NCBI GenBank assembly: GCA_016841425.1
Contig: JAENZE010000015.1
Location: 14,032 to 78,031 of the forward strand
Source: Syntrophomonas sp.
GTDB taxonomy: Bacteria > Bacillota > Syntrophomonadia > Syntrophomonadales > Syntrophomonadaceae
Length of the DNA stretch: 64,000 bases
Reading direction: 5' to 3'
In this document: positions 4,355 to 25,015 of the stretch, in pieces
Position numbering within the stretch: position 1 is the stretch's first letter
How the letters are laid out: each line of letters opens with the position of its first letter
The notes under the pieces: generated by a model
The model's input: only the letters and a program-made list of their open reading frames with translations
What the model was told of the DNA's origin: nothing
Databases searched by the model: none
Translations under genes and position numbers: made by a program

Positions 4355-4371
4355 TATAGTTTTTAATTCTG

Positions 4372-4417
4372 AGCCCATTTTATTCTATAATTAATAGAAT
4401 AGAATGGGCTTATTTTA
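4372..4417 (+). terminator. rho-independent terminator after the MCP gene
   Basis: AGCCCATTTTATTCTA / TAGAATAGAATGGGCT stem with one mismatch, followed by TATTTTA. Confidence 0.7.
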
Positions 4418-4429
4418 TGGGAGGATATT

Positions 4430-5086: not shown

Positions 5087-5114
5087 GGATGGAGATATAG
5101 TTGGGAGAGGAGGA

Positions 5115-5306: not shown

Positions 5307-5338
5307 GATCATAAGCTTATAAGAAGTGAGGGATGTTA

Positions 5339-6094: not shown

Positions 6095-6186
6095 AGGAGT
6101 GCTGGAAGATAGACTTTAGCAGTATTGACGTACTAGCAGCATATATTGGTAAATTTGGAGTTTATGGATCAATAGTAATAATAATA

Positions 6187-10160: not shown

Positions 10161-11030
10161 ATGAAAACTTATTATGATTGTATTCCCTGTCTATTAAGAC
10201 AAACGGTTGAAGCTATGCACATGTTCGTAAAAGATGAGGGAATACAGGAGAAACTGATACGGTTCGTACTGCGTGAAATAGCAGATATGGATCTGAATGA
10301 AACCCCTCCTTATATGGCTGGATTGATTCACCGCCGGATAAGGGAAGTACTGCATGATACTGACCCTTATAAGGAGATAAAAGAGCATTTTAACCAATTG
10401 GCCTTAAACATGTATGAAAATTTGCATAAGCAGGTTGAAGAATCGGCTGATCCTTTTGACACAGCGGTACGTATTGCTATTGCAGGTAATATTATTGACT
10501 TTGGGGTTCGTGCTGATATTGGACCCCGGGAGGTAGAGGAAACCCTGCTAGAATGTCTGCAAAGACCTATCGCATTTAACGCTTCTGCGGAATTAAATCA
10601 CGCTATACTGCAGGCAGATAGAATTTTATTTCTGGGTGATAATGCCGGAGAAATAGTATTTGATCGCCTCTTGATTGAACAGATACCAGCGCAAAAAGTC
10701 TGTTATGTGGTTAAAGCAATGCCAGTAATAAATGATGCCATTATGGAAGATGCAGTTGCCACTGGCATGACTGAGCTGGTAAGAGTTATTGATAATGGCA
10801 GCGATGCACCAGGTACTAATTTTAATTTATGTTCACCACAGTTTATCGAGGAATTTCACCAAGCAGATCTTATTATCGCCAAGGGTCAGGCCAATTATGA
10901 GACTCTCAATGAGGTGAAGAACAAAGATATCTTTTTCTTATTGAAAGTTAAATGCCCGGTAATAGCCCGGGATTTAGGATGTGACACGGGTGCTGTAGTA
11001 CTCAAAAGCTGCTGTAGAAAAACGGTATAA
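10161..11030 (+). CDS. DUF89 / ARMT1-like damage-control phosphatase family protein
   Basis: N-terminal YYDCIPCLLRQ motif and a C-terminal AKGQANYE motif, both characteristic of DUF89. Confidence 0.75.
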   Translation: MKTYYDCIPCLLRQTVEAMHMFVKDEGIQEKLIRFVLREIADMDLNETPPYMAGLIHRRIREVLHDTDPYKEIKEHFNQLALNMYENLHKQVEESADPFDTAVRIAIAGNIIDFGVRADIGPREVEETLLECLQRPIAFNASAELNHAILQADRILFLGDNAGEIVFDRLLIEQIPAQKVCYVVKAMPVINDAIMEDAVATGMTELVRVIDNGSDAPGTNFNLCSPQFIEEFHQADLIIAKGQANYETLNEVKNKDIFFLLKVKCPVIARDLGCDTGAVVLKSCCRKTV

Positions 11031-11194
11031 ATACATCGGGTAGGGTGTCATCGGAGAAGGTCTGATTAGGCATAAGTAATTGGCAGGGTTCCCCAAATAT
11101 TTTGTTTATGAGATAATAAAAGGAAAAAAAGGCAGATGATAACTTGCTAACCAGAACATAAATTGAACTATTAGAATAAGAGAGGTGAAGCTCT

Positions 11195-12265
11195 ATGTAT
11201 GCTGTTATTTTAGCGGGAGGCAAGGGAGAAAGATTCTGGCCGCTGTCTCGTCGGGATAAACCTAAGCAGTTTTTATCTCTTCTGGGCAATCGTACTATGC
11301 TGCAGATGACTGTAGATAAACTCCAAGGACTGCTAACACCTGCTAACATTTATGTAATTACTGAGCGTATATATCTCGAACTGGTTAGAAAACAGCTGCC
11401 TGAGCTTCCATTGGAGAATATAATTTGTGAGTATTGTGGAAGAGACACAGCAGCAGCCGTTGGACTGGCCGCTGCTTATATCCAGCACCGCGATCCTGAG
11501 GGTATAATGATAGTACTGCCAGCCGATCATTTTATTGCCGATATCGAAGAATTTCAGCGGATAATACAGGTTGCTGTACGGTCTGCTGATTCTGGAGAGT
11601 ATGTGGTCACTATTGGCATCAGACCCTCCCGGCCGGAAACGGGATATGGCTATATACAGCAGGGTGAGGCGGTAGAGAATTTAGAAGGTATTAATGTTCA
11701 TAAGACGATTGCATTTCACGAGAAACCTGATCTACAGACAGCTGTTGACTATATAACCCAGGGTAGTTATTTATGGAACAGCGGTATGTTTGTGTGGCGA
11801 GTAGATTTACTCCTTGGATTAATTGCCAGGTACTTGCCGGAGCTGAACCGAGGTGTGGCTCTTATCTCAGAGGCTATAGGTACTGAGCGGGAAGCGGAGG
11901 TTATAAGGAACGTATACGAGAAGCTTCCACGGGTTTCTATTGATTATGGAATAATGGAGAAATGTGAACAGGTACTGGTAATTCCCGCCGCATTTGGCTG
12001 GGACGATGTAGGCAGCTGGACAGCTTTGGGACGCTACCGGGAATCTGATCCCCAGGGAAACATACTGGAAAGTCGCGGGGTTTTTGTTGATACCCATGAA
12101 TGTATGGTTTATGCGCCCCAAAGGGTAGTAGCTACTCTGGGGGTAGAAGGTCTAATAATCGTAGATAACCAGGATAGCCTGCTGATTTGCAGCAAAGACC
12201 GGGTCCAGGAAATCAAGAAAGTTGTGGAAGCTCTTAAGGAAGCAGGATACCGGGATATAGTTTAA
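11195..12265 (+). CDS. manC: mannose-1-phosphate guanylyltransferase (nucleotidyltransferase domain only)
   Basis: AVILAGGKGERFWPLSR N-terminus, the LPADH motif, and a length and layout typical of GDP-mannose pyrophosphorylase. Confidence 0.85.
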   Translation: MYAVILAGGKGERFWPLSRRDKPKQFLSLLGNRTMLQMTVDKLQGLLTPANIYVITERIYLELVRKQLPELPLENIICEYCGRDTAAAVGLAAAYIQHRDPEGIMIVLPADHFIADIEEFQRIIQVAVRSADSGEYVVTIGIRPSRPETGYGYIQQGEAVENLEGINVHKTIAFHEKPDLQTAVDYITQGSYLWNSGMFVWRVDLLLGLIARYLPELNRGVALISEAIGTEREAEVIRNVYEKLPRVSIDYGIMEKCEQVLVIPAAFGWDDVGSWTALGRYRESDPQGNILESRGVFVDTHECMVYAPQRVVATLGVEGLIIVDNQDSLLICSKDRVQEIKKVVEALKEAGYRDIV

Positions 12266-12328
12266 CAATTCGAGGTACAGCATGATTAACAATACTTGAG
12301 AAGTCTTCATGGGAGGGGAGGAAGACCT

Positions 12329-13696
12329 GTGATAAAGCATAATATTTTCAGGTTATACGATATCAGAGGCATCGTCGGGGAAGACTTGACCGAGCAAGCG
12401 GTTTATAAAATTGCCCGTGCCATAGCATCTAAGGCTGTTAGTAGAGGTTACAAGAAGATAGTGCTGGGAAGGGATAATAGAATGTCTTCACCCCGTTTGC
12501 GAGAAATCACAATAAAAGCTCTTCTCGAATCAGGCTGTGACATAGTAGACCTGGGGGTGGTAATAACCCCTATTTTCTACTTTGCAGCCCGACATTTGAA
12601 TATCAAAGCTGGTCTGATGATAACTGCCAGTCACAATTCTTCCGAATATAATGGTTTCAAGATGCTGTTAGGAGAAACTACTATCTACGGGGAGGAGATT
12701 CAAGAGATACGCCAGATCGCCGAAAGTGGTGAATATATCTCTGGCACAGATGGCAGATTGATAGAACTAGATATTATAAATGACTATATGGAAATGATAA
12801 AGGGAAAAATCCAGTTAGGATCCAAAAAACTTAAAGTAGTCGTAGACTGCGGCAGCGGCACTGCATCGCTTTTTGCTCCCCGTTTATTTCGAGAGCTGGG
12901 CTGTCAGGTGGTAGAATTGTACTGCGAATCCGATCCGACATTTCCTCATCATCATCCCGACCCGGTCGCAGTAGAAAACTGTCAGGATTTGATTCAGGTA
13001 GTGAAACAGGAACAAGCTGACCTGGGAATCGGCCTGGATGGAGATGGTGATCGCCTGGGTGTGGTTGACCGGGAAGGAAATATCATCTGGGGTGATATGC
13101 TGATGATTCTTTTCTGGCGGGAAATCCTTCCTCATCATCCTGGTACTGAGTGCATCGTGGAAGTGAAGTGTTCACAGAGCCTTATTGATGAAATCAGCCG
13201 CCTGGGAGGCAAGCCCTTGCTTTACAAAACCGGGCACTCTCTGATTAAAGGCAAGATGAAGGAAACCGGGGCAATATTTACCGGCGAGATGTCAGGTCAC
13301 ATGTTTTTTGCCGACGAATATTATGGCTTTGATGATGCTCTTTATGCTGCGGCCAGGCTTTTGCGCATTCTGTCTAATAGTGATAAGGATCTCACTGAAT
13401 TACTGGCCGATGTTAACAAGTATTATACTACCCCGGAAATAAGGGCAAAAAGTACTGATGAGGCTAAATTCGAGGTAGTAGAACAGGTATTACAGCACTT
13501 CCGTCCGCTATATGAAGTTCTGGATATAGATGGAGCACGTATTCTCTTTCCCGAGGGCTGGGGTCTGGTTCGGGCTTCCAATACTGGTCCAGAACTGATT
13601 GTAAGATGTGAAGGCAGTACCCCGGAAGCTCTGGAGAAAATTAGTGGAGAACTGTTCAGTTTCTTAGAAAATCTTGGTATAAGCATAAAAGGATAG
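12329..13696 (+). CDS. phosphomannomutase / phosphoglucomutase
   Basis: Active-site TASHNSSEYNGFK, metal loop GLDGDGDR and sugar loop GEMSGH. GTG 12329 follows GGGAGGGGAGG. Confidence 0.9.
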   Translation: MIKHNIFRLYDIRGIVGEDLTEQAVYKIARAIASKAVSRGYKKIVLGRDNRMSSPRLREITIKALLESGCDIVDLGVVITPIFYFAARHLNIKAGLMITASHNSSEYNGFKMLLGETTIYGEEIQEIRQIAESGEYISGTDGRLIELDIINDYMEMIKGKIQLGSKKLKVVVDCGSGTASLFAPRLFRELGCQVVELYCESDPTFPHHHPDPVAVENCQDLIQVVKQEQADLGIGLDGDGDRLGVVDREGNIIWGDMLMILFWREILPHHPGTECIVEVKCSQSLIDEISRLGGKPLLYKTGHSLIKGKMKETGAIFTGEMSGHMFFADEYYGFDDALYAAARLLRILSNSDKDLTELLADVNKYYTTPEIRAKSTDEAKFEVVEQVLQHFRPLYEVLDIDGARILFPEGWGLVRASNTGPELIVRCEGSTPEALEKISGELFSFLENLGISIKG

Positions 13697-13988
13697 CAGA
13701 TTTGGGCAGGTCACCCCGATAATTAAAGATGCTGCTAATTGGAAACCTGCCAGCAACCCGTCCCTTTGACATGTTGAAGATGACTCTACACCCCCGGCTC
13801 CCTGGCTTGCTGATGACTAAAATGTAAATATGTGTTAAAATTAGACTTAAGGGATACATTTTTATAGCAATAAATCAACTCCCCATTAACTTTTCTATTA
13901 CCCTTCCTACAAAAAAACTGCTGGAAAGATGCTGTTGCAAGTTAAGTGCTGCTATATTGTCAGTGCCTGAAAAGGAGGTGAATCAGGG

Positions 13989-15164
13989 ATGAATACGTCC
14001 TTGATCGTGAGTACCTATCCTCCCCGCCAGTGCGGAATTGCAACTTTTTCCAAAGACTTGAGGGATAATCTTATACATCTTATACCAGAAGTTCTGGTAG
14101 CTGCAATTAATGATCCCTTTCAATCCCACGACTATCCTTCCGAGGTAGTACTACAGCTTCAGCAGGAAAATAGACAGGATTATATCTCTTGCGCTACCTG
14201 GGCTAACCATCAGTCCAACCTGGATATGCTCATAATTCAACATGAATACGGCATATTTGGGGGGCTGGATGGGCAATACATAGTTGATCTGGCCGGCTGC
14301 CTCACCAAGCCTTTTCTGCTGGTTACTCATACTGTACTGCCCCAGCCATCTAAAAAGCAAAAGGAAATATTGTGCAGACTGGCAGGTCTGGCTGCTGGAG
14401 TCCTGTGTATGACTGAAAGATCCCGCAGGTTATTAGCTAATGTATATGAAGTGAAGTCAGAAAAGATATTTATAGTGCCTCATGGTGTACCCACTTTTAT
14501 CAAAAAGAGTAGACTGGATTTGAAAGATCAATACGGTCTGCGGGATCGCAGCATTATTACTACTTTCGGCTTAATAGGTCCAGGGAAAGGTCTGGAAATA
14601 GGTATTAAGGCTTTAGCCAGATTAGTTAAAGAACACCCTCAGCTGCTATATATAATTGCTGGTGCTACTCACCCAATCCTGCTGAGAAATGAAGGGGAGC
14701 GGTATAGGGAAAGCATCATAAAGCTGGTGGCTGAATTGCATTTGGATGATCATGTGTTGTTTGAAAATCGCTTTCTAGATGATGATGAACTAGGAGATTA
14801 TTTGTATATGACTGATATTTACCTGAGTCCCTACCCCAATCTGGACCAAGCGGTATCAGGGACTCTGGCTTTTGCGGTAGGTTGCGGTCGGGCTATAGTC
14901 TCCTCTCCCTACGAATATGCACGGGAAATTCTAGCCCAGGGCAGGGGCATGATAGCCCCGGAACCTACTCCTGAAGCGCTGGCAGACTTTCTGAACCTGG
15001 TTTTAAGAAATCCAGACCTCAAACAGGAATTAGAAACAAAAACGGCGGAATTTGGTCGTACTCTAACCTGGGCCAGCGTAGCAGAACTTTATAATGATAT
15101 AGGGGAAGAGATATTGGATATCAATAAAGCAAAATATTCCCAGGCCAGCGGAGGCAGGCCCTAG
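13989..15164 (+). CDS. GT4-family glycosyltransferase (GT-B fold)
   Basis: STYPPRQCGIATFSKDL N-terminus and a C-terminal GT-B (group 1) domain. AAGGAGG RBS. Confidence 0.8.
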   Translation: MNTSLIVSTYPPRQCGIATFSKDLRDNLIHLIPEVLVAAINDPFQSHDYPSEVVLQLQQENRQDYISCATWANHQSNLDMLIIQHEYGIFGGLDGQYIVDLAGCLTKPFLLVTHTVLPQPSKKQKEILCRLAGLAAGVLCMTERSRRLLANVYEVKSEKIFIVPHGVPTFIKKSRLDLKDQYGLRDRSIITTFGLIGPGKGLEIGIKALARLVKEHPQLLYIIAGATHPILLRNEGERYRESIIKLVAELHLDDHVLFENRFLDDDELGDYLYMTDIYLSPYPNLDQAVSGTLAFAVGCGRAIVSSPYEYAREILAQGRGMIAPEPTPEALADFLNLVLRNPDLKQELETKTAEFGRTLTWASVAELYNDIGEEILDINKAKYSQASGGRP

Positions 15165-15206
15165 GAAGCAAGGGGACGTCAGACTGTTACAAAATTCAGT
15201 CAATCG

Positions 15207-15491
15207 TCAAGGCTGTAGGTTAAAAATAGGCGCAACCTTGTAATTTGAGTAAAAATATGCTAAAAGTACCCTTGAGATTGAATTTATGGCCTCTAACCGG
15301 GCCATAAATTCTTTAACCCCCAATATGTTCAATACTCTTTTTAGGTTATGTCCCAAAAAGAGCAACGCCACTTCTACCCGCACCTTTCGTTGGCTTCGCA
15401 GGAGAAAATACCTCCCTCCCAGGTTGTGTTTTATTGTCCCGAACGAGTGCTCCACTATTTGCTGGTGCCTTTTTTATAGTGTTAGTTTGGC
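15207..15491 (-). pseudogene. C-terminal relic of an IS5/IS1182-superfamily DDE transposase
   Basis: The VEHSFGTIKHNLGGRYFLLRSQRKVRVEVALLFLGHNLKRV pattern matches the conserved C-terminus of these transposases. The frame is closed by a stop only about 12 codons upstream, so no catalytic domain remains. Confidence 0.65.
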
Positions 15492-15599
15492 TCTAACTTC
15501 AGGACTATTAATCGAAGTTGGGCAGTTTAAAAGGAAAGAAAAGGTTCTTGACACCTTTATTGCATAACTAATAATAATACATAAAATGCATAAAAGTTA

Positions 15600-15629
15600 T
15601 TGACCAAGTCAGTATATGTCGATTATAAT
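15600..15629 (+). promoter_or_regulatory. candidate sigma-A promoter for the PHP-ABC operon
   Basis: TTGACC, 18 nt, TATAAT, ending 40 nt before the ATG at 15669. Confidence 0.4.
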
Positions 15630-15668
15630 TGTGCAAACACCTTTTAGGAGAATTTTTGGAGAATTGCG

Positions 15669-16307
15669 ATGATAATTGACACCCATGTTCACGCTTACCC
15701 TACTTCGGATGACAGCGATATGACGCTGGAGCAGATTGTTGAGCAGGCATTGGAAATAGGACTTGATGGAGTATGCATCACTGACCATGATTCCCTGATT
15801 ATAAAGGAAAGGGCCAGGGATTATTCAAGAAAGGCCGGTTTTCCTATATTCGTAGGGGCGGAAGTGTTTACTTATGAAGGTGATGTGCTGGTGTTTGGTT
15901 TGGATAAACTTCCTGGTCAGAGGGTACACGCTGATTACCTGCTTGATTTAGTACAGGAAAGTGGGGGGATAGCAGTAAGCGCTCATCCTTTCCGCACCAA
16001 CAACCGGGGGATGGGGAACGTGGCCCGGCGACACTGTCTGCATGGTATAGAGGTATTTAATGGCAGCACTGACATGATCAACAATCTGAAAGCTGTTACT
16101 ATGGCTGAAGATATGAGATTGCCCCTGCTGGGAGCTAGTGATGCCCATAGAGTTGAAGCTCTGGGTAAATATTCTACCTGGTTCCCTGACGGTATGAGCA
16201 ATGAGAAGGACTTAATCAAAGCTGTTAAACAGGGAAATGTTTATCCAGTCAGATTGACTGATAAAGGATTTGAAAAGATCAGCCGGCAGATTATAAAGAG
16301 TACCTAG
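15669..16307 (+). CDS. PHP-domain metal-dependent phosphoesterase
   Basis: IIDTHVHAYP ... ITDHD ... SAHPF ... ASDAH His/Asp motifs of the PHP fold. Confidence 0.8.
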   Translation: MIIDTHVHAYPTSDDSDMTLEQIVEQALEIGLDGVCITDHDSLIIKERARDYSRKAGFPIFVGAEVFTYEGDVLVFGLDKLPGQRVHADYLLDLVQESGGIAVSAHPFRTNNRGMGNVARRHCLHGIEVFNGSTDMINNLKAVTMAEDMRLPLLGASDAHRVEALGKYSTWFPDGMSNEKDLIKAVKQGNVYPVRLTDKGFEKISRQIIKST

Positions 16308-16424
16308 ATCCTTTCTGGATTTTTTCAGGGGAGGGGATAAGCTATAGAGATATTATGATTCTTATGCTGATAATATCTGCACGAATTGCATGCGAAGGAT
16401 AAGAAATAGGGGGCGTTATTGGTA

Positions 16425-17465
16425 ATGAAACAGAAGTTACTGGCAATGTTAATGATTTTGTTTTTTGTGTTCAGCCTGGCGGGTTGTGCCGGGTCATCTG
16501 ATGATGATCAGCCGGCTCCAGAGGAAAAAATCGCAGCTGATTTAGCCGGCACCACTTTAAAGGTATTTGCTGCTTACGACGGAAAAGATGAAATATTCCA
16601 GGCATTTGAAGCAGATACCGGTATAAAGGTTGAATACCTGGACATGTCATCTGGTGAAGTTCTGGCCCGTATCCGGGCGGAGCAGGGAAAACCCCTGGGA
16701 GACATTTGGTTTGGCGGTGGAGTTGACAGCTTCATTGCCGCTCAAATTGATGGCTTGCTGGAAAGCTATCTGTCAGCGGGAGCCGAATTTGTGCCTGCCC
16801 AGTATAAAGATCCGGATGGATATTGGACGGGCATATCACTGGTAACAGTTAGTTTAATTGTAAATACTGATCGCTGTGCGGAGTTGGGGATGGAAGTTCC
16901 TCAGACCTGGCAGGATCTGCTTAAACCTGAGTTTAAAGGTGAAATATTAATGCCCAATCCCGCCATATCAGGTACTGCTTATACCATACTGAGCGGAATT
17001 CTTCAGACTATGGGCGAGGAAGAAGGGTGGGCTTACATGGATCAATTAAATGCCCAGATTCCATATTACGCCAAGCGGGGAGGAGAGCCGCCCCAGAAGG
17101 CAGCCCTGGGTGAAGTGGCGGTAGGGCTTGCACCTGACACCGGTGAAGAGCTGAAAGCCGACGGCTATCCCATCGTATCAGTATTTCCCCGGGATGGTAC
17201 CCCGTGGTGGCCGGCTCCGGTTGCTATTTTAAAGGGAGCTGAAAACCTGGAAGGTGCCAAGGTGTTTGTAGACTGGTGTTTGAGTGAAAAAGGCCAGCAG
17301 ATACTCAGGGATAATTGTGCCAGGGTTCCCGCCCGGGAGGGAATTGAATTGCCGGAATGCTTGTCGGAAATCAAAGATGCAGAACTGCAGGATATAGACT
17401 TTGTTGCTGCGGGTAACGCCAGGGATGGATTAGTTGAACAGTGGCAGACCCGGTATGGTCAATAA
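16425..17465 (+). CDS. ABC transporter substrate-binding lipoprotein (Fe3+ / polyamine / thiamine-type PBP2 family)
   Basis: Signal peptide with lipobox LAGC, followed by a solute-binding fold of about 320 aa. TTG 16419 is an alternative start. Confidence 0.8.
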   Translation: MKQKLLAMLMILFFVFSLAGCAGSSDDDQPAPEEKIAADLAGTTLKVFAAYDGKDEIFQAFEADTGIKVEYLDMSSGEVLARIRAEQGKPLGDIWFGGGVDSFIAAQIDGLLESYLSAGAEFVPAQYKDPDGYWTGISLVTVSLIVNTDRCAELGMEVPQTWQDLLKPEFKGEILMPNPAISGTAYTILSGILQTMGEEEGWAYMDQLNAQIPYYAKRGGEPPQKAALGEVAVGLAPDTGEELKADGYPIVSVFPRDGTPWWPAPVAILKGAENLEGAKVFVDWCLSEKGQQILRDNCARVPAREGIELPECLSEIKDAELQDIDFVAAGNARDGLVEQWQTRYGQ

Positions 17466-19155
17466 GTTTAAAGAAGGGGGGCCTTTTAAAGGCACCTCTT
17501 TTTCTGATTTGCTGGCAGGTTTAATTTATGTTCTAATAGCAGCCAGTGTTCTGGTTTTTATTTTGTGGCCCAGTATAACGATAATTGTGAAAAGCGTTTA
17601 TTATGACGGGCAATTCACCCTGGTTGAATACATTAAGCTTTTTACCCAAAACAAACAGCTGCTGTTAAACAGTATATTTGTATCGGTTGTTTCTACGGTG
17701 CTGGCGGTAGCTATTGGACTGTTTGTGGCATTGTTTATTAGTCATTCTCAGAATCGCGGCAAGAGACTGACTTTCGCGGTGCTGCTGCTGACCATGATTT
17801 CTCCTCCGTTTGTTTCTGCTTTATCATATATCATGCTGTTTGGCCGCCGAGGAATAATAACCTATTACCTGATGGGGCTAACGGTAAACCCTTATGGATG
17901 GCATGGGGTAGTTATTATGCAGGCTTTAAGCCATGCCTCTCTGGCCGCCCTGATTATTCTGGGTGTATTGCGGGGAATTGACAAAAGCCTGGAACAGGCC
18001 TCCCTGGACCTGGGGGCAGACAGCCTTAAGACTCTGTTGAAAATTTCCATCCCCCTGGCGAAACCAGGTGTTATTGCCGCCGCACTGATAGCCTTCATAC
18101 AATCACTTGCTGACTTTGGCACTCCGGCAATAATAGGTGGTAATTTTAGCGTACTGGCAACGGAAGCCTACATGAATGTGATAGGTATGTATAACTTGCC
18201 CAGAGCAGCAGCTATGGGCACACTTTTAATGATACCCGCCCTGCTTATGTTCATTATCTACCGGCGGACAGTGGAAAATTCAAAATATTTCTCCCTGCGG
18301 GTGAGTACCGAAAGTCCCCTGAAATTATCCAGGGGGGTTAACTATAGTCTGGCCCTGATAACAATCAGTTTTATATCATTCCAGTTAATACAATATATCA
18401 CCATACTCTGGGGAGCTTTCGCGAAAACCTGGGGGGTGGATTTCTCTTTCAGCCTAAGGCACATTCAGGCTGTGGAAGCAAGCCGATTAGCCGCCTTTGG
18501 CCGCAGCCTGGAATACGCATTGATCGCAGCCCTGGTTGGGACTCTGCTAGGAATGATAATTGCCTACATGATAGAAAGGAAGAAGTTTCCCGGCTACAGG
18601 ATTTTGGACTTTTTGGTCACACTGCCCTATATGATACCCGGTCCATTTCTGGGAATTGCCTATGTCCTGGCATTTCACAATAAACCCTTGATTCTTACCG
18701 GTACTGCTTTTATAGTAGTGGTAAACTGTATCTATCGCCAGTTGCCTATCAGTACCAGAGCGGGTACAGCAGTGCTTACCCAGCTCAACCCGGAGACCGA
18801 GTACAGTGCTCGGGACCTGGGGGCAAGTGAGATAACCGTTTTCAAGGATATAATATTGCCTTCATTAAAACCAGCTTTTCTGCTGGGATTTGTAAATACT
18901 TTTACCACCACCATGACAACTATCGGAGCAATAATATTTCTGGTGGTGCCAGGAGCTGAAGTGGCTACGGTACAAATGTTTACTACCATAAAAACCGGGC
19001 AGATAGGAGTAAGTACAGTTCTAGCCAATATGATAATACTGGTTACCCTGGCCATAAATCTAGTATTTTCTTACTTTATTTTGCGTTCCCCCAAATATGG
19101 TGGCAGCGAAAAAAGGGAGGGAGCCTATGTACCTGCAATTGATGGGATTAAGTAA
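17455..19155 (+). CDS. ABC transporter permease, duplicated (two-module) type
   Basis: About 12 TM segments with two EAA-like loops (LDLGAD..., ARDLGAS...). Overlaps the substrate-binding gene. The start is uncertain (17434 or 17455). Confidence 0.8.
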   Translation: MVNKFKEGGPFKGTSFSDLLAGLIYVLIAASVLVFILWPSITIIVKSVYYDGQFTLVEYIKLFTQNKQLLLNSIFVSVVSTVLAVAIGLFVALFISHSQNRGKRLTFAVLLLTMISPPFVSALSYIMLFGRRGIITYYLMGLTVNPYGWHGVVIMQALSHASLAALIILGVLRGIDKSLEQASLDLGADSLKTLLKISIPLAKPGVIAAALIAFIQSLADFGTPAIIGGNFSVLATEAYMNVIGMYNLPRAAAMGTLLMIPALLMFIIYRRTVENSKYFSLRVSTESPLKLSRGVNYSLALITISFISFQLIQYITILWGAFAKTWGVDFSFSLRHIQAVEASRLAAFGRSLEYALIAALVGTLLGMIIAYMIERKKFPGYRILDFLVTLPYMIPGPFLGIAYVLAFHNKPLILTGTAFIVVVNCIYRQLPISTRAGTAVLTQLNPETEYSARDLGASEITVFKDIILPSLKPAFLLGFVNTFTTTMTTIGAIIFLVVPGAEVATVQMFTTIKTGQIGVSTVLANMIILVTLAINLVFSYFILRSPKYGGSEKREGAYVPAIDGIK

Positions 19156-20059
19156 AAGTTATAATAACATAACGGCAGTAGATGATTTACACCTGGAGCT
19201 GGATAAAGGAGAACTGTTATCCATTCTGGGCCCTTCCGGTTGCGGGAAAACCACTACCCTCAGGATGATTGGAGGGTTTACTCCGGCCGAGAGCGGTAAG
19301 GTTATCCTGGAAGGCCGGGATATAAGTACAACTCCGCCTAATCTGCGGCCTACTGCCACTGTATTTCAAAGCTATGCCTTGTTTCAGCATATGAACGTTA
19401 TCCAAAACGTCTGCTACGGGCTAAAATTTCAAAAGCTGGGGAAAAAAGAGATGCTGGGGCAAGGGGAAGAGATGCTGGAAATGGTAGGATTGAAGCACTA
19501 CAGAAATAAGCCGGTGAATCAGCTGTCAGGAGGTGAACAGCAAAGGGTGGCTCTGGCCCGGGCTATGGTTATGAATCCGAAAGTCTTGCTGCTGGACGAA
19601 CCTTTGAGCAACCTGGATGCTAAATTACGGCAAAAAATGCGCAAAGAAATCAGAGATATTCAGAAAGAATTGGGTATCACCACCCTGTATGTTACTCATG
19701 ACCAGGAGGAAGCCCTGAGTATATCAGATCGTATAGCGGTTATGAACCACGGTAGGCTGGAACAGGTGGGCACTCCCAGAACCGTTTATAACTCACCGGC
19801 CAGTCGATTTGTTGCAGAATTTATTGGCAGGATAAACTTCCTGGCAGGAAAAGGGGAGCAGATACTGGCAGTAAGACCAGAGCGGATTACCATGTCAGAG
19901 GTATCAGGCTCCCTGCTGGGTACCATTGCACAAAAGCAATTTACCGGTGCGTATACCACCTACTTTGTCAGGGTTAGTGACCATACCATTGAAGTCGATG
20001 TACCATCCCTTGAAGATCGGGAATGGAACCCCGATGACGTAGTTTACCTTTCGTATTAA
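19127..20059 (+). CDS. ABC transporter ATP-binding protein (PotA/FbpC-like)
   Basis: Walker A GPSGCGKTT, signature LSGGEQQR and Walker B LLLDEP. ATG 19127 follows GGGAGGGAG. Confidence 0.9.
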   Translation: MYLQLMGLSKSYNNITAVDDLHLELDKGELLSILGPSGCGKTTTLRMIGGFTPAESGKVILEGRDISTTPPNLRPTATVFQSYALFQHMNVIQNVCYGLKFQKLGKKEMLGQGEEMLEMVGLKHYRNKPVNQLSGGEQQRVALARAMVMNPKVLLLDEPLSNLDAKLRQKMRKEIRDIQKELGITTLYVTHDQEEALSISDRIAVMNHGRLEQVGTPRTVYNSPASRFVAEFIGRINFLAGKGEQILAVRPERITMSEVSGSLLGTIAQKQFTGAYTTYFVRVSDHTIEVDVPSLEDREWNPDDVVYLSY

Positions 20060-20225: not shown

Positions 20226-23200
20226 TTATCTGCGGTATTGTTCAGGAATTAGGTCCGCCAGTGTTGCTGTAGCCACACCGATGTGAGTATCTGCAGCTCC
20301 ATAATAAACCAGTATTTCGTCATCATCTTCCAGGATTTCCTTGTTGGAAGCTGCTACTGCTCCACAGGTAAAAACAACGTTGGGTACCCATGAGCCTGAA
20401 CCAGAGCCAATTTCATAGTCTTCTTCAGGCTGCAGTATACTGTTGGGGGAACGATAAATCAGAAGTTCCGGATTGTTAAGATCGACCAGGATCACGCCCA
20501 GACGATAAACCAGCTGCCGGTCTACTCCATGATATATCATCAACCAGCCGTAACGGGTTTTAATAGGCTGGGTACCGGAACCGATTTTCAAAGAATCCCA
20601 CATCCGACCAGAACGGGGCCCTATGATAATGGCATGCCTTTCCCGGGGTACCGGAAATTCTAATTTATCCAGGTAGGAAACCCATATACTGGGTTCAATG
20701 CGATGATAAATAACGTATTTTCCCTGTATTTTTTCTGGAAACAGTATGGCATCTTTGTTCCATACATCTTTAAAGGCCAGTCCCTTTCTCATCCATTTAT
20801 CAAACCTGCGTTCCAGAAAGTCTGCTACCTTTATGGAAGCAGCTGAAATTTGAGCGATAACCCCATCATAAGCAGTGTACATCATATAAATTTCGTCATC
20901 TATAATAACAGCTCGCGGATCTTCACAGCCCCGCTTCTCTTTTTCATTTACCGGTATAAATATCGGATCTGGCAGCCTTTCAAGAATGTTAAAGCCATCG
21001 CTTACCGCCATACCGATACGGGAGACTTCATCGTCTCCATAAGCCCGGTACAGAATATAGACGCGGTCATCAAGCCTTAGTGCTGCAGCATTCAGTACAT
21101 ATTTACTTTCCCAGAAATGATCTTTGATGGGATTTAGTATTGGATTACCTGTATATCTAACCAGGGGTTTAGCAGGCGGATATGCAATGGCTTCCTGAGC
21201 GACCACCGTTACATCTTTGGGTCTAATACCCAGAAGGGAATCCAGAACGTTTTCACTGGCTCTTCCTTCACCGATAAGCTGCTGTACTCCAGACTCGATG
21301 CTGAAGATATCGTAACCGAGTTCCTTATAAATATCCTCCAGCAAATCCTGGTTAAACCATTTTTCTTCTACATGACTGGAAAGAGGCGTAGGTACCCCTT
21401 TTCCTCCCTTATAATTATAGCTGGACCAACTCCAGGCCGAGAGGGGAAGAAAAGTGCCATTGTCTAGCACCTGGCTTAAGCCATAACTGTCACACATTAT
21501 TCGTATAATATTAGCTTCTTCAACTAGCCCCTGGTCCTGAAGCTTATCTGCCAGACCCCGAAAGTTGTTTACCAGAGTACGGTGATGAAGATTTTCAAAA
21601 ATATTATGGGCTGAAAAAGCCGTAGTTTCATAGCGTCCAATCAAGGAATTGCGTATCTTGGTTCCTAAATTTTTGCGTTCCCGGGCAAAAGTTCTCCACA
21701 GCTGGGCATAGTTTTCGGCAATAGTAATGTGCCGGGCTATGAATAAACAGAATCGGAGTCTGGGAAATTCACCTCCCATACCTTTATTAAAAGGAGTAGT
21801 AACGATCCTGGTAGTAAGCTTATTAAGATTGGAAATATTGCCCAACCTGGCTATCTGACCAAACCTTGGCTCTAATACAATATATTGAATATCTACTTCT
21901 TCCAGACCTTCAGGACGGATGTTGTCTAATATCCATAATAATGCCCGGTCAGCGTATTTGCGAGTCTCGATCAAGTTAGCCAAACTTACTGCATCCCTGA
22001 TATTCATTTGCTCGATCAGATCGCGGGTACTCTGGCATCCGGCCGGTATCATGACATTTACCGGGGGAAATCTGACTACCATTTCTTTAAATGTCTCATC
22101 CTTAACCGAATACATCCTCCTGTACGGGAGCAGTTCGAAAAGATGCTGCAAGACCTGCTCAACCCCGTCCTCGCTATACAGGTCGCCGGGAAAGAGTGAT
22201 TCCATAGTCCTTTCCAATTGGTTCATGTACTCTTTGAAGCGGGCAAATATGGTATCAGGTTCCGCATCGCGGGCCACTCCCAAAGAATTGTGAATTACAT
22301 CTTCGAATGCTTCCTGATAACGTTTTTGAAGACGGTTGAAGACTTCTTCCGTGTATACTACTTTACCCCCCTTACCGATAATGGTATTTGGCAGAACTAT
22401 GGGTATTCCCGGAACATACTCCAGATAGCGGGAAGGAGTAAGGGGTGGAGTAACCTCGAGCAGTGTTTTTTCCCACTTATCGTTAAATCTATCCCGTATC
22501 CTAAGAAAACACCTGCGCTGTTCAGCTTTCATGGCCGATGCTTCGAGTTCGGGCAAATGGCTGGCGTTAATACCCCCCATACCTTCCAGCTGTTCCTGTA
22601 AAAGCTGCATATGCAATACATAACTGGCTATTCTTCCATTAAATGCTGAAGTAAGGGTATTTAATATATCGTCTCGATTCAATTCTTGGGAAAAGCAGTA
22701 CTCAAACAGCAGTGAGAGAACGAGTTCAGCCCAGCTCTCAGGTTTGAACTTGAATTCTTTGCTGGGAGTCAGAACCGAGTTCTGTATGTCTTTATATACG
22801 GTTCCCTTCACAGCGGTTTCGTATATGCTGGCATACTGATTAAAGTTTCGTTTAAAAAACAGCACCATCTCTTCAGCACAGAAGATTACCTCTACTGGTT
22901 CTTCTTCATTTCGAACCCCATATATATCTGGAACTCGCGAGATAATCTGGTTTTTTAACCAGTACTCCTCATCTCTTTTAATACATTCAAACAAGGCCCG
23001 TGCTATTTCCTTGAAAACATAATTAACCTTCTCCAGGGAGAATCGCTCTAATTTCGCTCCCAGTGAAACTTCGCACATATCCTTGTTCCACATCATCACC
23101 CGGGTTAATATCCAGGGGTCGATTCCGTAGCTTTTCGTTATTTCCGGCCAGAATTTGAATTCCAGGCACAAATCTTCTACCAGATTATGCGAGAGGGCAT

Positions 23201-23789
23201 AAATGCCGCTCAAAGCTCCTTCTATTCTGTAACCATAAAAATGTTCCAGCAGCGGCGCCACTAGAAAACTGTTAACAATGTTATCGAAATAGTGCTGCCG
23301 ATAGGTGGTTAATACAAAGTCATATTTTAAACCCAGGGGCTCCGCTATTCTGCTTATCCAGTCTGCCTTTAAGCCCCTGTGCTCTTCACTGGCCAGGTCG
23401 GCTGCAAAGATTATTATATCGGAGGTTAAATGATCTGCTATTTCCAGCATCGCCCGTATACTAGCTCCTCGACCGTTGCTGCCTGGCAGCATAAGGAATT
23501 CATAGTGGGGGAAATTAAACTCCATCTCTTGAATACGTTCAATAGCTTCACTGCCTTCAGGGTCACCTGCGCATAGAATTAAAGGGTTCTTGTAGTTTTG
23601 GCCGTTGAATAGTGCTTCCTCTATAGTCTTGAGTATAATGGGCAGTGTATCTTTTTCATTATAGAAAGGAACCCCGATAATCAAATCGGCCTGGTAAGAT
23701 TCTAATTCCTGCCAGGCTTTATGCAAAGTCTCATTAAAAATAACTTCACTTTTTTCTAAATGCTCACAATCGGCTGGTATAAATTCCAT
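20226..23789 (-). CDS. 1187-aa multidomain protein: N-terminal GT-A-like glycosyltransferase region, about 550 aa of unassigned middle, and a C-terminal GH130-like (beta-mannoside phosphorylase family) beta-propeller
   Basis: The N-terminus (IIGVPFYNEKDTLPIILKTIEE ... IIIFAADL) looks like a GT-A fold. The last 330 aa or so (GNPILNP ... GCEDPRAVIIDDEIYMMYTAYDG ... YHGVD ... VYYGAADT) carry GH130/DUF377 signatures. GGGAGGGG RBS. Confidence 0.7.
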   Translation of the reverse strand: MEFIPADCEHLEKSEVIFNETLHKAWQELESYQADLIIGVPFYNEKDTLPIILKTIEEALFNGQNYKNPLILCAGDPEGSEAIERIQEMEFNFPHYEFLMLPGSNGRGASIRAMLEIADHLTSDIIIFAADLASEEHRGLKADWISRIAEPLGLKYDFVLTTYRQHYFDNIVNSFLVAPLLEHFYGYRIEGALSGIYALSHNLVEDLCLEFKFWPEITKSYGIDPWILTRVMMWNKDMCEVSLGAKLERFSLEKVNYVFKEIARALFECIKRDEEYWLKNQIISRVPDIYGVRNEEEPVEVIFCAEEMVLFFKRNFNQYASIYETAVKGTVYKDIQNSVLTPSKEFKFKPESWAELVLSLLFEYCFSQELNRDDILNTLTSAFNGRIASYVLHMQLLQEQLEGMGGINASHLPELEASAMKAEQRRCFLRIRDRFNDKWEKTLLEVTPPLTPSRYLEYVPGIPIVLPNTIIGKGGKVVYTEEVFNRLQKRYQEAFEDVIHNSLGVARDAEPDTIFARFKEYMNQLERTMESLFPGDLYSEDGVEQVLQHLFELLPYRRMYSVKDETFKEMVVRFPPVNVMIPAGCQSTRDLIEQMNIRDAVSLANLIETRKYADRALLWILDNIRPEGLEEVDIQYIVLEPRFGQIARLGNISNLNKLTTRIVTTPFNKGMGGEFPRLRFCLFIARHITIAENYAQLWRTFARERKNLGTKIRNSLIGRYETTAFSAHNIFENLHHRTLVNNFRGLADKLQDQGLVEEANIIRIMCDSYGLSQVLDNGTFLPLSAWSWSSYNYKGGKGVPTPLSSHVEEKWFNQDLLEDIYKELGYDIFSIESGVQQLIGEGRASENVLDSLLGIRPKDVTVVAQEAIAYPPAKPLVRYTGNPILNPIKDHFWESKYVLNAAALRLDDRVYILYRAYGDDEVSRIGMAVSDGFNILERLPDPIFIPVNEKEKRGCEDPRAVIIDDEIYMMYTAYDGVIAQISAASIKVADFLERRFDKWMRKGLAFKDVWNKDAILFPEKIQGKYVIYHRIEPSIWVSYLDKLEFPVPRERHAIIIGPRSGRMWDSLKIGSGTQPIKTRYGWLMIYHGVDRQLVYRLGVILVDLNNPELLIYRSPNSILQPEEDYEIGSGSGSWVPNVVFTCGAVAASNKEILEDDDEILVYYGAADTHIGVATATLADLIPEQYRR

Positions 23790-23827
23790 AATTACACCCC
23801 TCCCTGCAATTATAATTATACGTTGGC

Positions 23828-23843
23828 AGCCATCATAATGCCA
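23828..23843 (-). promoter_or_regulatory. possible sigma-54 -24/-12 element upstream of the 1187-aa gene (weak)
   Basis: The minus strand reads TGGCATTATGATGGCT. GG and GC have the correct spacing, with one mismatch in the -12 box (TGGCT vs TTGCW). It lies about 40 nt upstream of the ATG. Confidence 0.3.
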
Positions 23844-23897
23844 GGTATATTGAAAGCATATGCTTGAACATAACTATAATGCAGGCTAGTTGAGTCA

Positions 23898-23994
23898 GGG
23901 GACACAGGGGGACGGGGGACACAGGGGGACGTTTCTGTTGTGTCCTTTTATTTTGTGGTAGGAAGGACACAACAGAAACGTCCCCCTGTGTCCC
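23898..23994. repeat. 32-bp perfect inverted repeat (arms 23916-23947 and 23963-23994, 15-nt loop), preceded by a tandem copy of GGGGACACAGGGGGAC
   Basis: Read directly: GGGACACAGGGGGACGTTTCTGTTGTGTCCTT, loop, AAGGACACAACAGAAACGTCCCCCTGTGTCCC. The 16-mer occurs at 23898-23913 and again at the start of the left arm. Confidence 0.9.
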
Positions 23995-24228
23995 TTAAAT
24001 TAACTTCGATACTTACGTCTCTTAAATAGCGAGGCAAAGAGGACTCCTGCCCGAAGCCGGAATGGAAATACCACGTTTATCGTAGAACTGCCTAAATAAG
24101 TAAGTCTGGCGGGTCTTTCGCGACACTTTTTAACGAATTGAGTTGGATGGTTATCTTAAGAATATCAGGGATTAGCACAGCTCTCCTCGGATAATAAAGT
24201 CATGGTTGAATTGAAAAATGAATACCAG

Positions 24229-24310: not shown

Positions 24311-25015
24311 TTAAAGAGCAAAAACATGTCGCCCAATTTGGGTTATTATATTTCTGCTCCATACCCACTTACTAGTTGCCGTTACTGGATTCCAATAGTA
24401 TAAAGCCCCCCCGGTGGGATCCCATCCCTTTAGAGCGGCCTCTGCGGCTTGTCTGGAAACCTTGTCGGGCTGCAAATAGAATTGACCATCACTGACAGCA
24501 GTGAAGGCAAGGGGTTCAAAAATAACGCCTCTTAAGGTGTTGGCAAATTTCTTTGATTCGAGCCGGTTAAGGACAACTGCAGCAACTGCTACCTGACCCA
24601 CATAAGGTTCCCCCCTGGCTTCACCATACACTATCCTGGCCAAATCAAAAACATCCTGACTTGAAAAGGATAGAAATCCGCGAGAAGGAGTAGTGGTATT
24701 CACAGATCCATGACTTACTCCATTTATAATAGCCATTGCTGTTGCTTTACCAACTATGCCGTCAACATTTAGTCCGTTATCTGCTTGAAAATTACGAACT
24801 GCGGTCAAGGTTTGCCACCCAAATACGCCGTCAACGGAGCCTGCTGAATATCCCAGATAGTTTAAATCTTTTTGTAATTGATTGACATCATAACCCTGCA
24901 TTCCTATTTTGAGTGTCCTATCTCCCAGGTAAGCATCAGCCTGGGCTGGAATAAGTAAATGTGCAAACATAACTATGAATGTAATAAGTAACACGGCAGC
25001 TATCTTATTTTTCAT
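24311..25015 (-). CDS. sleB: spore cortex-lytic enzyme SleB (peptidoglycan-binding domain plus SleB hydrolase domain)
   Basis: Signal peptide, a PG_binding_1 repeat (GYDVNQLQKDLNYLGY ... DGVFGWQTLTAVRNFQ) and the SleB catalytic-domain motif (YGEARGEPYVGQVAVAAVVLNR). Confidence 0.85.
   Translation of the reverse strand: MKNKIAAVLLITFIVMFAHLLIPAQADAYLGDRTLKIGMQGYDVNQLQKDLNYLGYSAGSVDGVFGWQTLTAVRNFQADNGLNVDGIVGKATAMAIINGVSHGSVNTTTPSRGFLSFSSQDVFDLARIVYGEARGEPYVGQVAVAAVVLNRLESKKFANTLRGVIFEPLAFTAVSDGQFYLQPDKVSRQAAEAALKGWDPTGGALYYWNPVTATSKWVWSRNIITQIGRHVFAL

Follow-up and report, generated by a model that had tools for sequence, protein, structure and literature searches.

A GT-A-like/GH130 fusion protein of anaerobic Bacillota and its possible part in an endogenous mannoside cycle

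The analyzed DNA (the window, meaning the whole stretch of 64,000 nucleotides from Syntrophomonas sp.) contains a long gene whose product joins a region resembling a nucleotide-sugar transferase to a phosphorylase-like domain of the GH130 family. The question raised by this locus is what a single polypeptide with a putative synthase at one end and a putative phosphorylase at the other could do in the cell. A sequence-only reading had suggested a self-contained enzyme that makes and breaks an intracellular glycoside or oligomannan.

The fusion gene is a real and complete minus-strand ORF of 1187 codons whose ATG start lies at 23789 and whose end lies at 20226 (Table 1); the strand was missing from the sequence-only reading. 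No signal peptide or membrane segment was found in a hydropathy scan of all 1187 residues (Kyte-Doolittle maximum 1.19 over 19-residue windows), and the N-terminus is acidic. The protein is predicted to be soluble and cytoplasmic. The searched protein collection contains one protein (P0001) that is 100% identical to the fusion, along with more than 100 full-length homologues with lengths of about 1190 aa. Public records name the protein merely "glycosidase".

Relatives of the fusion were found in 329 species-level genomes, with anaerobic Bacillota as hosts. A single ORF of 1100–1350 aa with the same architecture is present in 71 of 84 related loci, among them that of the complete genome of Syntrophothermus lipocalidus, and the G+C content is even over the three modules (0.425–0.449). 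These data speak against an artefact in which two or three genes were merged via misassembly or sequencing error, an explanation that we consider extremely improbable. A few database relatives are indeed annotated as split genes, but one of these (L004) has a run of N at the junction, another (L003) shows a frame change in a contig with a long-read style name, and in L002 the ManC and GT4 genes are likewise called in pieces; the split relatives are themselves artefacts. Misassembly, which had been named as a possible refutation, was ruled out by the comparative data on single-ORF loci and species-level genomes. The architecture had also been called unusual; it is rare inside GH130, yet it is the norm throughout one clade of anaerobic Bacillota. 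Modular proteins of a "GH130-GT81" type are reportedly already present in CAZy (PMC7660257), and these entries may be the fusion family.

Table 1. Features of the fusion gene and its surroundings, in window coordinates
Feature	Position	Strand	Basis
Three-module fusion gene, complete ATG-started ORF, 1187 aa and stop	20226..23789	(-)	ORF list and translation
GH130 domain, predicted β-1,2-mannoside phosphorylase type, residues 876–1187	20229..21164	(-)	Pfam, PDB sequence matches, Foldseek, residue mapping
Middle module, mostly α-helical, residues 446–875	21165..22454	(-)	Stand-alone model and conservation
Helical subdomain, residues 296–445, counterpart of the mannosylglycerate synthase C-terminal helical domain	22455..22904	(-)	Model, Foldseek, hhalign
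GT-A catalytic subdomain, residues about 30–295	22905..23702	(-)	Family profile, Foldseek, hhalign, conservation in 72 members
Ribosome-binding site AGGGAGGGG of the fusion gene, downstream of the promoter-like site	about 23797–23805	(-)	Sequence itself
Promoter-like site CTGGCA, 18 nt, TATAAT	23815..23844	(-)	Consensus scan, 10/12 matches; consensus match only
Mannose-1-phosphate guanylyltransferase (ManC)	11195..12265	(+)	Pfam NTP_transferase and ManC β-helix
Phosphomannomutase/phosphoglucomutase (PMM)	12296..13696	(+)	Four PGM_PMM domains
GT4 glycosyltransferase	13989..15164	(+)	Pfam Glycos_transf_1
SleB-type spore cortex hydrolase, neighbour of the fusion gene	24311–25015		Own terminator

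The C-terminal assignment to GH130 was borne out. The Pfam domain PF04041 matches residues 891–1180 with E 3e-53 and 181.3 bits against a cut-off of 26, which by profile score is far beyond chance, and the signatures noticed earlier were located at residues 954–959 (GCEDPR), 1086–1090 (YHGVD), and 1162–1167 (YYGAAD). The PDB sequence search returned 7fip (E 4.5e-57) and 9fj8 (E 7.5e-54), and Foldseek gave TM 0.84–0.88 against the Thermoanaerobacter phosphorylases. The key residues R915, E956, D957, K1012, R1030, K1068, H1087, and D1167 show no variation among 72 family sequences; thus, the catalytic Asp and the phosphate-binding residues, which had been singled out for checking, are all intact. 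D957, K1012, R1030, and K1068 align to D137, K184, R202, and R242 of Uhgb_MS, and H1087 aligns to the conserved His. The catalytic Asp and the basic phosphate-holding residues (K1012, R1030, and K1068) distinguish phosphorylases from hydrolases of this family (PMC12814180; PMC4599007). The determinants of β-1,2 specificity are a Glu before the catalytic Asp, a conserved Lys, and an Arg of the +1 subsite (PMC12814180; PMC4599007). E956 and K1012 are counterparts of the first two, and R915, assigned solely through the 7fip alignment, of the third, as expected for the β-1,2-specific subfamilies GH130_4 and GH130_6. The C-terminal module is therefore predicted to be a GH130 phosphorylase of the β-1,2-mannoside type with a complete active site. 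With the NCBIfam equivalog for β-1,2-mannobiose phosphorylase (NF052550) it scored 254.7 bits against a cut-off of 450, and by this comparison it is related, not equivalent, to that enzyme.

The N-terminal resemblance to GT-A transferases holds at the fold level and is weak at the sequence level. The Pfam family Glycos_transf_2 has no match in the fusion. A family profile searched against PDB sequences matched the GT2 enzymes ArnC, GtrB, and DPMS weakly (E 1e-4 to 1e-3, residues 26–201); neither mannosylglycerate synthase nor any GT81 sequence was among the matches. With Foldseek, the N-terminal model matched mannosylglycerate synthase at E about 1e-12 and TM 0.74–0.76 over the whole synthase of 377–380 residues, so both parts of the GT78 fold, the GT-A catalytic domain and the C-terminal helical domain, are represented. 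The second-best structural class was GT81 (GpgS/MpgS), with E about 1e-7 and TM 0.56–0.62. The predicted model of residues 296–445 is entirely helical, and the hhalign alignment is colinear through residue 355 of the synthase. The sequence similarity in this alignment is not significant (E 0.045, probability 1.2%, identity about 14–16%), and for this reason a glycerate acceptor is only a guess. As modelled, the N-terminal module folds like the retaining GT-A transferases that make mannosylglycerate or glucosyl-3-phosphoglycerate.

Conserved motifs of the GT-A subdomain were found in the fusion at residues 41–45 (PF(Y)xE), 106–108 (G-R-G), and 221–224 (YGID). The expected equivalent of the DXD motif is replaced by AAD. 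In mannosylglycerate synthase, D102 of the DXD motif (D100-A-D102) and His217 bind the metal (PMC2581804). The fusion has A129-A130-D131 at this place, as far as can be aligned at such low identity; 67 of 72 sequences retain the second Asp (D131), all of them have D157 and D224, and no conserved His equivalent to His217 was found in the aligned region of the 72 sequences. Judged from these residues, the GT-A module may be metal-independent, may have another chemistry, or may be inactive.

Between the two ends, about 550 residues had been described as matching nothing. An unmatched stretch does exist, but it comprises about 430 residues (446–875), with residues 296–445 belonging to the synthase-like helical subdomain. 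The structure prediction recommended for this region yielded a confident stand-alone model (pLDDT 88.2, pTM 0.88), for which no similar fold was found in the PDB with Foldseek (best E 0.097, TM <0.17) and no match in BFVD. Neither Pfam nor NCBIfam contains a matching family, and the profile of the module gave no match below E 0.3 among PDB sequences. The module has the motifs RFPPxN, KGMGG, FSAHNIFEN, and WxWxSYxYKGG, and 54 positions of residues 446–889 are at least 97% conserved in the 72 sequences. Distant relatives include stand-alone proteins of about 420 aa and fusions to sugar-1-phosphate nucleotidyltransferases. In a TreT-like variant of 1314 aa (P0121/P0292), found in Syntrophaceae-type metagenome bins, the GT-A, helical, and middle modules are homologous to those of the fusion (28% identity over 862 residues), whereas the C-terminus is a TreT_GT1 and GT4 transferase instead of GH130. 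Since this variant swaps GH130 for a TreT-like GT4, the N-terminal and middle modules appear to be a cassette that pairs with a second glycosyl-transfer enzyme. The middle module probably binds a shared intermediate or supplies a third activity.

Contrary to what had been supposed, the fusion is not self-contained: its gene belongs to a conserved group that also includes ManC, PMM, and GT4. In the window, ManC scored 326.6 bits with NCBIfam GMP_PMI (under the cut-off of 372.95) and PMM scored 480 bits with PgmG (under the cut-off of 600). Among the 33 well-flanked related loci, i.e., those with at least 6 kb on each side, ManC and GT4 were each found in 31, an (α/α)6-like protein in 27, PMM in 20, and a second GH130 in 9. 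The window GT4 is 48–87% identical to the GT4s adjoining the fusion in related loci. One GT4 relative carries the name PslF in its source record. In the nearest Syntrophomonas genomes, the GT4 gene directly adjoins the fusion gene. An ABC transporter, with a binding protein of the phosphonate (phnS2) type, sits between them in the window; this cassette was found in none of 80 related genome loci, among them the 7 nearest, in which GT4 adjoins the fusion gene. In Syntrophothermus, the fusion gene stands alone, without ManC, PMM, or GT4 neighbours. Record titles identify the hosts as clades of syntrophs that oxidise fatty acids and acetate. Such hosts live close to the thermodynamic limit.

The same neighbourhood could serve the salvage of imported β-1,2-mannooligosaccharides, phosphorolysed by GH130 to mannose-1-phosphate and converted by ManC to GDP-mannose, which the GT-A module and GT4 would spend on an unrelated glycoconjugate. 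The corresponding partnership of GH130 β-1,2 phosphorylases, ManC, and GT4 was so interpreted for the Thermoanaerobacter cluster (PMC4264767), and the ABC transporter of the window would fit an import route. However, its binding protein is of phosphonate type and the cassette is absent from the related loci; no sugar transporter or secreted mannanase was found among the called genes of six related loci; and PMM is conserved, an enzyme that either de novo supply or catabolic return would require. The host clades are not known as sugar users or to live on imported sugars, which also weighs against salvage and is a reason for favouring an endogenous cycle. We consider salvage the least probable of the functional alternatives. 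An envelope, S-layer, or spore glycan is also improbable, if less so. Here, ManC, PMM, the PslF-like GT4, and the fusion would build a mannose-rich surface polymer, with GH130 acting as a β-mannosyltransferase; sets of ManC, PMM, and GT4 are typical for polysaccharide loci, and GH130_6 enzymes such as Teth514_1788 accept GDP-mannose as a donor, weakly (PMC12814180). Among the genes called in the six related loci, neither a flippase nor a polymerase, exporter, or priming phosphoglycosyl transferase was found, the fusion lacks a membrane segment, and the residues for phosphate binding, a defining trait of phosphorylases, do not vary. The adjoining SleB-type gene might point to the spore, but it has its own terminator and is not among the conserved neighbours.

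Another alternative concerns the protein itself. The GH130 end alone could be catalytic, with the GT-A module reduced to a degenerate domain that binds nucleotide sugar or sugar; its role, shared with the middle module, would be to regulate, oligomerise, or target the phosphorylase. The loss of the first DXD Asp and of a conserved metal-binding His, the marginal similarity to active synthases, and the conservation of the modules (mean identity 0.73 for GH130, the highest, 0.52 for GT-A, and 0.35 for the helical subdomain, the lowest) are in line with this view. On the other hand, P41, F42, E45, R107, D131, D157, and D224, all donor-site residues, are kept even where overall identity has fallen to about 30%, a pattern suggestive of selection on a site for binding or catalysis, and GT-A enzymes that work without metal exist. 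A solely GH130-based activity is unlikely, although it ranks above the two alternatives discussed before.

The make-and-break idea is compatible with all observations and is the preferred reading. It describes the fusion as a soluble enzyme of the cytoplasm, catalytic at both ends and uncharacterised in between, that acts in an endogenous mannoside cycle, to which we assign an even chance. In this cycle, GDP-mannose would be supplied by PMM and ManC. The GT-A module, possibly with GT4, would move a sugar from a nucleotide sugar to a small acceptor, the leading guess being a glycerate-like acid, giving an α-glycoside primer. The GH130 module would reversibly convert mannose-1-phosphate and an acceptor to a β-1,2-mannoside and phosphate. 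The net effect would be the formation of β-1,2-mannosides from GDP-mannose on the primer and their recovery through phosphorolysis. Given a reversible GH130 step, the stored mannose would be recovered as mannose-1-phosphate without ATP cost and would re-enter metabolism via PMM. The product may be a short oligomannoside reserve or a compatible solute of the oligomannosyl-glycerate type. Such a cycle would do for mannose what the glycogen cycle (GlgC/GlgA/GlgP/Pgm) does for glucose.

In favour of the cycle are the intact GH130 site, the synthase-like fold over both subdomains, the conserved synteny with ManC, GT4, and PMM, and the lack of a signal peptide or membrane segment. Further points in favour are the Thermoanaerobacter GH130 pair, which has ManC and GT4 neighbours as well (PMC4264767), the use of GDP-mannose as a donor by GH130_6 enzymes (PMC12814180), and the pairing of the N-terminal and middle cassette with a TreT-like GT4 in the variant. 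Against it are the altered metal site of the GT-A module and the solitary gene of Syntrophothermus; moreover, a synthase fused to a phosphorylase could risk a futile cycle unless regulated. The searched literature contains no report of a β-1,2-mannoside or mannosylglycerate from the host organisms. In its fullest form, the proposal is that a bacterial version of the Leishmania mannogen cycle operates in syntrophic and related anaerobic Bacillota. One polypeptide would make and recall a soluble β-1,2-oligomannoside, primed on a glycerate-like aglycone, that would act as an osmolyte or would buffer carbon and energy while sparing ATP, and the centre of 430 residues would be a new fold having a catalytic or substrate-channelling role of its own. 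This fuller version is doubtful.

Biochemical work has established β-1,2-mannoside phosphorylases without settling what they act on naturally in free-living bacteria; for Thermoanaerobacter, no source of β-1,2-oligomannan is known in the genus (PMC4264767). In the fusion family, such a phosphorylase is part of the same polypeptide as a synthase-type transferase and is linked, via synteny, to GDP-mannose supply. If the fusion does make and recall an internal mannoside, this would place GH130_6 enzymes in their physiological setting, show that syntrophs have a compound for storage or stress, give a first function to a large domain without structural relative, and offer a one-protein route to β-mannosides, which are chemically difficult to make (PMC4264767).

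Among known systems, the proposed cycle resembles that of Leishmania mannogen, an intracellular β-1,2-mannan made from GDP-mannose and phosphorolysed to mannose-1-phosphate (PMC10913872; PMC4264767). This comparison is an analogy, with no mannogen-like polymer known in the host bacteria of the fusion, and the Leishmania enzymes are single-domain GT108 dual mannosyltransferases/phosphorylases, whereas the fusion has three modules. The GT81 glucosyl-3-phosphoglycerate and mannosyl-3-phosphoglycerate synthases (PDB 5jqx, 7pd5) have the retaining GT-A fold in common with the N-terminal module, with a weaker structural match than that to mannosylglycerate synthase. For the Rhodothermus marinus mannosylglycerate synthase (GT78; PDB 2bo4, 2y4j-m), the PFxxE, G-(K/R)-G, and (W/Y)GID motifs and the second DXD Asp align with the fusion. 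Unlike this enzyme, the fusion has Ala for the first DXD Asp, no conserved equivalent of His217, and 740 further residues after the module. The closest relatives of the GH130 module are Teth514_1788 and Teth514_1789 of Thermoanaerobacter sp. X-514 (GH130_6; PDB 9fj8, 7fip), which are β-1,2-oligomannan and β-1,2-mannobiose phosphorylases, respectively. The module shares with them the five-bladed propeller at 39–42% identity and identical catalytic Asp, preceding Glu, β-1,2 Lys, and phosphate-binding residues. Teth514_1789 has a chain-length-limiting Trp, where the fusion has a 4-residue insertion. Each Thermoanaerobacter enzyme is a separate protein with a length of about 300 residues, whereas GH130 here forms the C-terminal quarter of a 1187-residue protein; the genomic partnership with ManC and GT4 is common to both systems (PMC4264767).

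The fusion protein is encoded by a single ORF of 1187 codons with an ATG start, as given by the ORF list and the translation. The encoded sequence contains neither a signal peptide nor a membrane segment. The GH130 signatures quoted in the sequence-only reading were located in this translation at residues 954-959 (GCEDPR), 1086-1090 (YHGVD), and 1162-1167 (YYGAAD). The initial Met is omitted in the family alignment A1 and in the full-length model, so positions there equal the protein numbering minus one. More than 100 full-length homologues of ~1170-1230 residues, with identity down to 36%, were found by a protein-collection search, one of them in the complete genome of Syntrophothermus lipocalidus (ADI02530.1, UniProt D7CP95, recorded as "glycosidase-related protein"). 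When one genome per species was scanned, relatives were found in 329 genomes. The best 80 of these loci are nearly all titled Syntrophomonadaceae, Pelotomaculum, Desulfotomaculaceae, Peptococcaceae, Thermacetogeniaceae, Syntrophaceticus, or Syntrophothermus; a few are labeled otherwise, for example as Actinomycetota, Deltaproteobacteria, or Negativicutes bins. The closest relative among the matches listed belongs to a Syntrophomonas bin (89% identity in the middle module). A single ORF of 1100-1350 residues was found in 71 of 84 loci. Together with the complete S. lipocalidus genome, this excludes an assembly error, that is, the misassembled fusion of two genes considered earlier.

Split versions of the gene (proteins P0109-P0112, loci L002-L004) were considered as naturally separate modules and rejected as artefacts. 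The L004 split coincides with a run of N at the junction of the N-terminal and GH130 parts (~5694-5709), the L003 split with a frame change between the two matched segments (~6570-6664) on a contig with a long-read-style name, and in L002 the adjacent ManC and GT4 are likewise called in pieces. In loci L005 and L080, two paralogous fusion genes flank the ManC-PMM-GT4 operon; L028 likewise has two fusion genes.

The C-terminal module (residues 876-1187) matches the Pfam GH130 family (E 3e-53), as had been read from its motifs. Its top solved relative is the β-1,2-mannobiose phosphorylase Teth514_1789 (7fip; E 4.5e-57), followed by the β-1,2-oligomannan phosphorylase Teth514_1788 (9fj8); identity to these enzymes is 39-42%, and the predicted structure aligns with them in Foldseek at TM 0.84-0.88. 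Functional residues were counted along the alignment with Uhgb_MS, with roles taken from the literature (PMC12814180; PMC4599007). E956-D957 corresponds to E136-D137, the β-1,2 determinant and the catalytic Asp; K1012 to K184, the β-1,2 lysine involved in phosphate binding; R1030 to the phosphate-binding R202; K1068 to the phosphate-binding R242, a position at which Teth514_1789 also has Lys; and H1087 to the conserved His of the phosphate site. None of these residues varies among 72 family members, nor do R915 and D1167; the catalytic Asp and the phosphate-binding residues are retained. From these invariant residues, the GH130 module is predicted to be an active phosphorylase of β-1,2-mannosides. 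With 254.7 bits, short of the cut-off of 450, the module does not qualify as an equivalog of the mannobiose phosphorylase, and its chain-length preference is not readable from sequence.

The N-terminal module (~30-445) has no match in Pfam or NCBIfam. Its family profile reaches the GT2 enzymes ArnC, GtrB, and DPMS at E 1e-4 only, and a profile built from alignment A3 of this module retrieved only fragments of its own family, with no distant named relatives, from a collection of 5.8 billion proteins. AlphaFold modelled the full-length protein confidently (mean pLDDT 86.5). In Foldseek, the next match after the GH130 ones is the mannosylglycerate synthase of Rhodothermus marinus (E ~1e-12, TM 0.74-0.76), aligned over all 377-380 target residues; thus, both the GT-A and the helical subdomains are matched. 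Glucosyl-3-phosphoglycerate synthases come next in the list (E ~1e-7). The proposed GT-A resemblance therefore stands at the level of fold, whereas at the level of sequence it is marginal.

The synthase sequence, verified against PDB, was compared with the family profile. Although the alignment is not significant (E 0.045), it is colinear over 267 columns and pairs the synthase PFKHE, GKG, D102, and WGID with PFYNE, GRG, D131, and YGID of the fusion protein, respectively. The DxD equivalent is thereby half retained: the second Asp is D131, whereas the first (D100 in the synthase) is replaced by Ala. H217 of the synthase is a metal ligand (PMC2581804), and no conserved His equivalent to it was found in the family alignment. 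As modelled, the N-terminal module has a synthase-class fold and appears to keep much of the donor site; by its motifs, it would fall outside GT78. We infer a glycosyltransferase activity for this module.

The middle module (446-875) was modelled confidently by itself (pLDDT 88.2, pTM 0.88) as a largely helical domain that contains a few short sheets. No structural relative was found by Foldseek in PDB (best E 0.097, TM <0.17) and no match in BFVD; Pfam, NCBIfam, and profile searches of PDB sequences also returned nothing. Mean identity is higher here than in the GT-A module (0.59 vs. 0.52), and 49 positions between residues 446 and 860 are invariant. Since many of these are charged (E457, R598, E608, R661, E704, K711, E732, R737, K794, and E808 among them), conservation points to a site of binding or catalysis, not to a linker.

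An exhaustive profile search for the middle domain retrieved 211 representative proteins, the fusion family included. A further tier consists of stand-alone proteins of ~400-430 residues, which contain its first two-thirds and a PPPNLL motif and for which no Pfam or NCBIfam family was found. This tier, with its variants, is represented by P0175, P0179, P0182, and P0193 (loci L087-L090). One version adjoins a ribulose-phosphate 3-epimerase. Another forms a fusion with a sugar-1-phosphate nucleotidyltransferase in a glycan-type locus, where its neighbors are a 1100-residue 2-hydroxyacid dehydrogenase/aminotransferase fusion, a TagF-like glycerophosphotransferase, methyltransferases, and GT4s.

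A sister architecture was found in a 1314-residue variant (P0121 and P0292), which retains the GT-A, helical, and middle cassette with 28% identity over 862 residues and carries at its C-terminus TreT_GT1 plus a TreT-like GT4 transferase in place of GH130. Independent assemblies containing this variant number at least 15, and a Syntrophaceae bin is the source of one cluster member. Because the cassette is kept while GH130 is swapped for a TreT-like GT4, the cassette is an evolutionary unit to which a second glycosyl-transfer enzyme is joined. At a distance of about 5 kb from the variant gene in L092, a protein with PHP and PHP_C domains and a cupin mannose-6-phosphate isomerase are encoded.

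Coordinates of the fusion gene, its surroundings in the window, and selected genes of related loci
Feature	Location	Position	Strand	Remark
ARMT1-like (ARMT1/DUF89-type damage-control) phosphatase	Window	10161-11030	plus	Directly upstream of ManC
ManC	Window	11195-12265	plus	
PMM	Window	12296-13696	plus	
GT4	Window	13989-15164	plus	
PHP phosphoesterase and phosphonate-type (phnS2-like) ABC transporter	Window	15669-20059	plus	Between GT4 and fusion gene
PHP phosphoesterase	Window	15669-16307	plus	
Fusion ORF	Window	23789-20226	minus	
Promoter-like site CTGGCA / 18 nt / TATAAT	Window	23844-23815	minus	5' of fusion ORF
Perfect 32-bp hairpin	Window	23914-23996 (and 23900-23913)		
Terminator of SleB-like gene	Window	24263-24240		Upstream of fusion ORF
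(α/α)6-like gene	L005	4794-5882	minus	Between GT4 and fusion gene
(α/α)6-like gene	L006	8966-9988	plus	Between GT4 and fusion gene
TreT-type variant gene	L091	1431-5375		
TreT-type variant gene	L092	8001-11945		

The plus-strand series from 10161 to 20059 is convergent with the fusion gene, which, because its downstream gene is convergent, appears monocistronic. The ORF is preceded by the ribosome-binding site AGGGAGGGG, and G+C content is even along the gene (0.425-0.449). The hairpin (-67.7 kcal/mol, z -13), which separates the terminator of the SleB-like gene from the promoter-like site, is built from the word GGACACAGGGGGAC, of which three copies occur there and none elsewhere in the window; a U-tract is absent 3' of it. 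Its candidate roles are a repeat element, an insulator, or a regulatory stem. A riboswitch at this position was rejected, as the Rfam matches are microRNA families on both strands, an artefact of the perfect hairpin.

Neighbors were counted in those related loci, 33 in all, where the fusion gene has 6 kb or more on either side. ManC and GT4 were each found in 31 of these loci, PMM in 20, and a separate GH130 in 9. A protein of 340-362 residues with weak GH88/GH127-like (α/α)6 signals was found in 27, its gene lying between GT4 and the fusion gene; it has no homologue within the window and is a candidate hydrolase of the fusion-protein pathway. In Pelotomaculum- and Desulfotomaculaceae-type loci (L017, L018, L020, L025, L026, and similar; ~4200-6200), the separate GH130 is ~35% identical to the fused domain, and the order is separate GH130, GT4, (α/α)6-like gene, fusion gene. 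For the window GT4, the search of PDB sequences gave no hit down to the threshold of E 0.001, and its 1555 homologues have no informative names save one "PslF." As GT4 directly abuts the fusion gene in all seven of the nearest Syntrophomonas-type loci, the PHP-ABC cassette seems to be an insertion specific to the window genome. Its PHP phosphoesterase was considered as the missing phosphatase of a two-step synthase route and rejected, not being a conserved neighbor (none within reach in 86 loci). The position of the ARMT1/DUF89-type phosphatase beside ManC is kept only in the nearest related locus, L007 (78% identity).

Each end of the fusion protein resembles a known enzyme class. The juxtaposition of GH130 with a GpgS-type transferase is already catalogued, since, according to a review of GH130, six of the 1592 sequences listed by CAZy were multi-modular, either GH130-GT81 or GH130-GH130 (PMC7660257); these entries only possibly belong to the fusion-protein family. 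No characterisation of the fusion protein was found in the searched literature, and its homologues in public records are named only "glycosidase" or "GH130 family protein." The synthase-like fold of the N-terminal module, the 430-residue domain without structural relative, the tight synteny, and the TreT-type sister architecture appear new to description.

Taken together, the parts could form a cytoplasmic mannoside cycle, a reading to which we give an even chance. GDP-mannose would be supplied by PMM and ManC, and the glycoside would be made by the synthase-type transferase, perhaps with GT4. The reversible β-1,2-mannoside phosphorylase would then extend or recall the glycoside via mannose-1-phosphate, which PMM would return to central metabolism. 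The glycerate-like acceptor is a guess, far less certain than the cycle. In the searched literature, no report was found that connects mannosylglycerate with Syntrophomonas, Pelotomaculum, Syntrophothermus, or Desulfotomaculum, and the relevant terms are absent from the S. wolfei proteome paper.

Some weight is also given to salvage of external mannosides and to assembly of a surface glycan. Similar weight falls on a non-catalytic GT-A module, with the Ala at the first Asp position on one side and the matched donor-site motifs on the other. The host organisms are not known to feed on sugars. ATP-sparing reactions are at a premium in them, and the mannoside cycle suits such hosts. Glycogen metabolism and the mannogen of Leishmania (PMC10913872) share its logic. 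The characterised Thermoanaerobacter phosphorylases likewise are located with ManC and a GT4, as the fusion gene is (PMC4264767).
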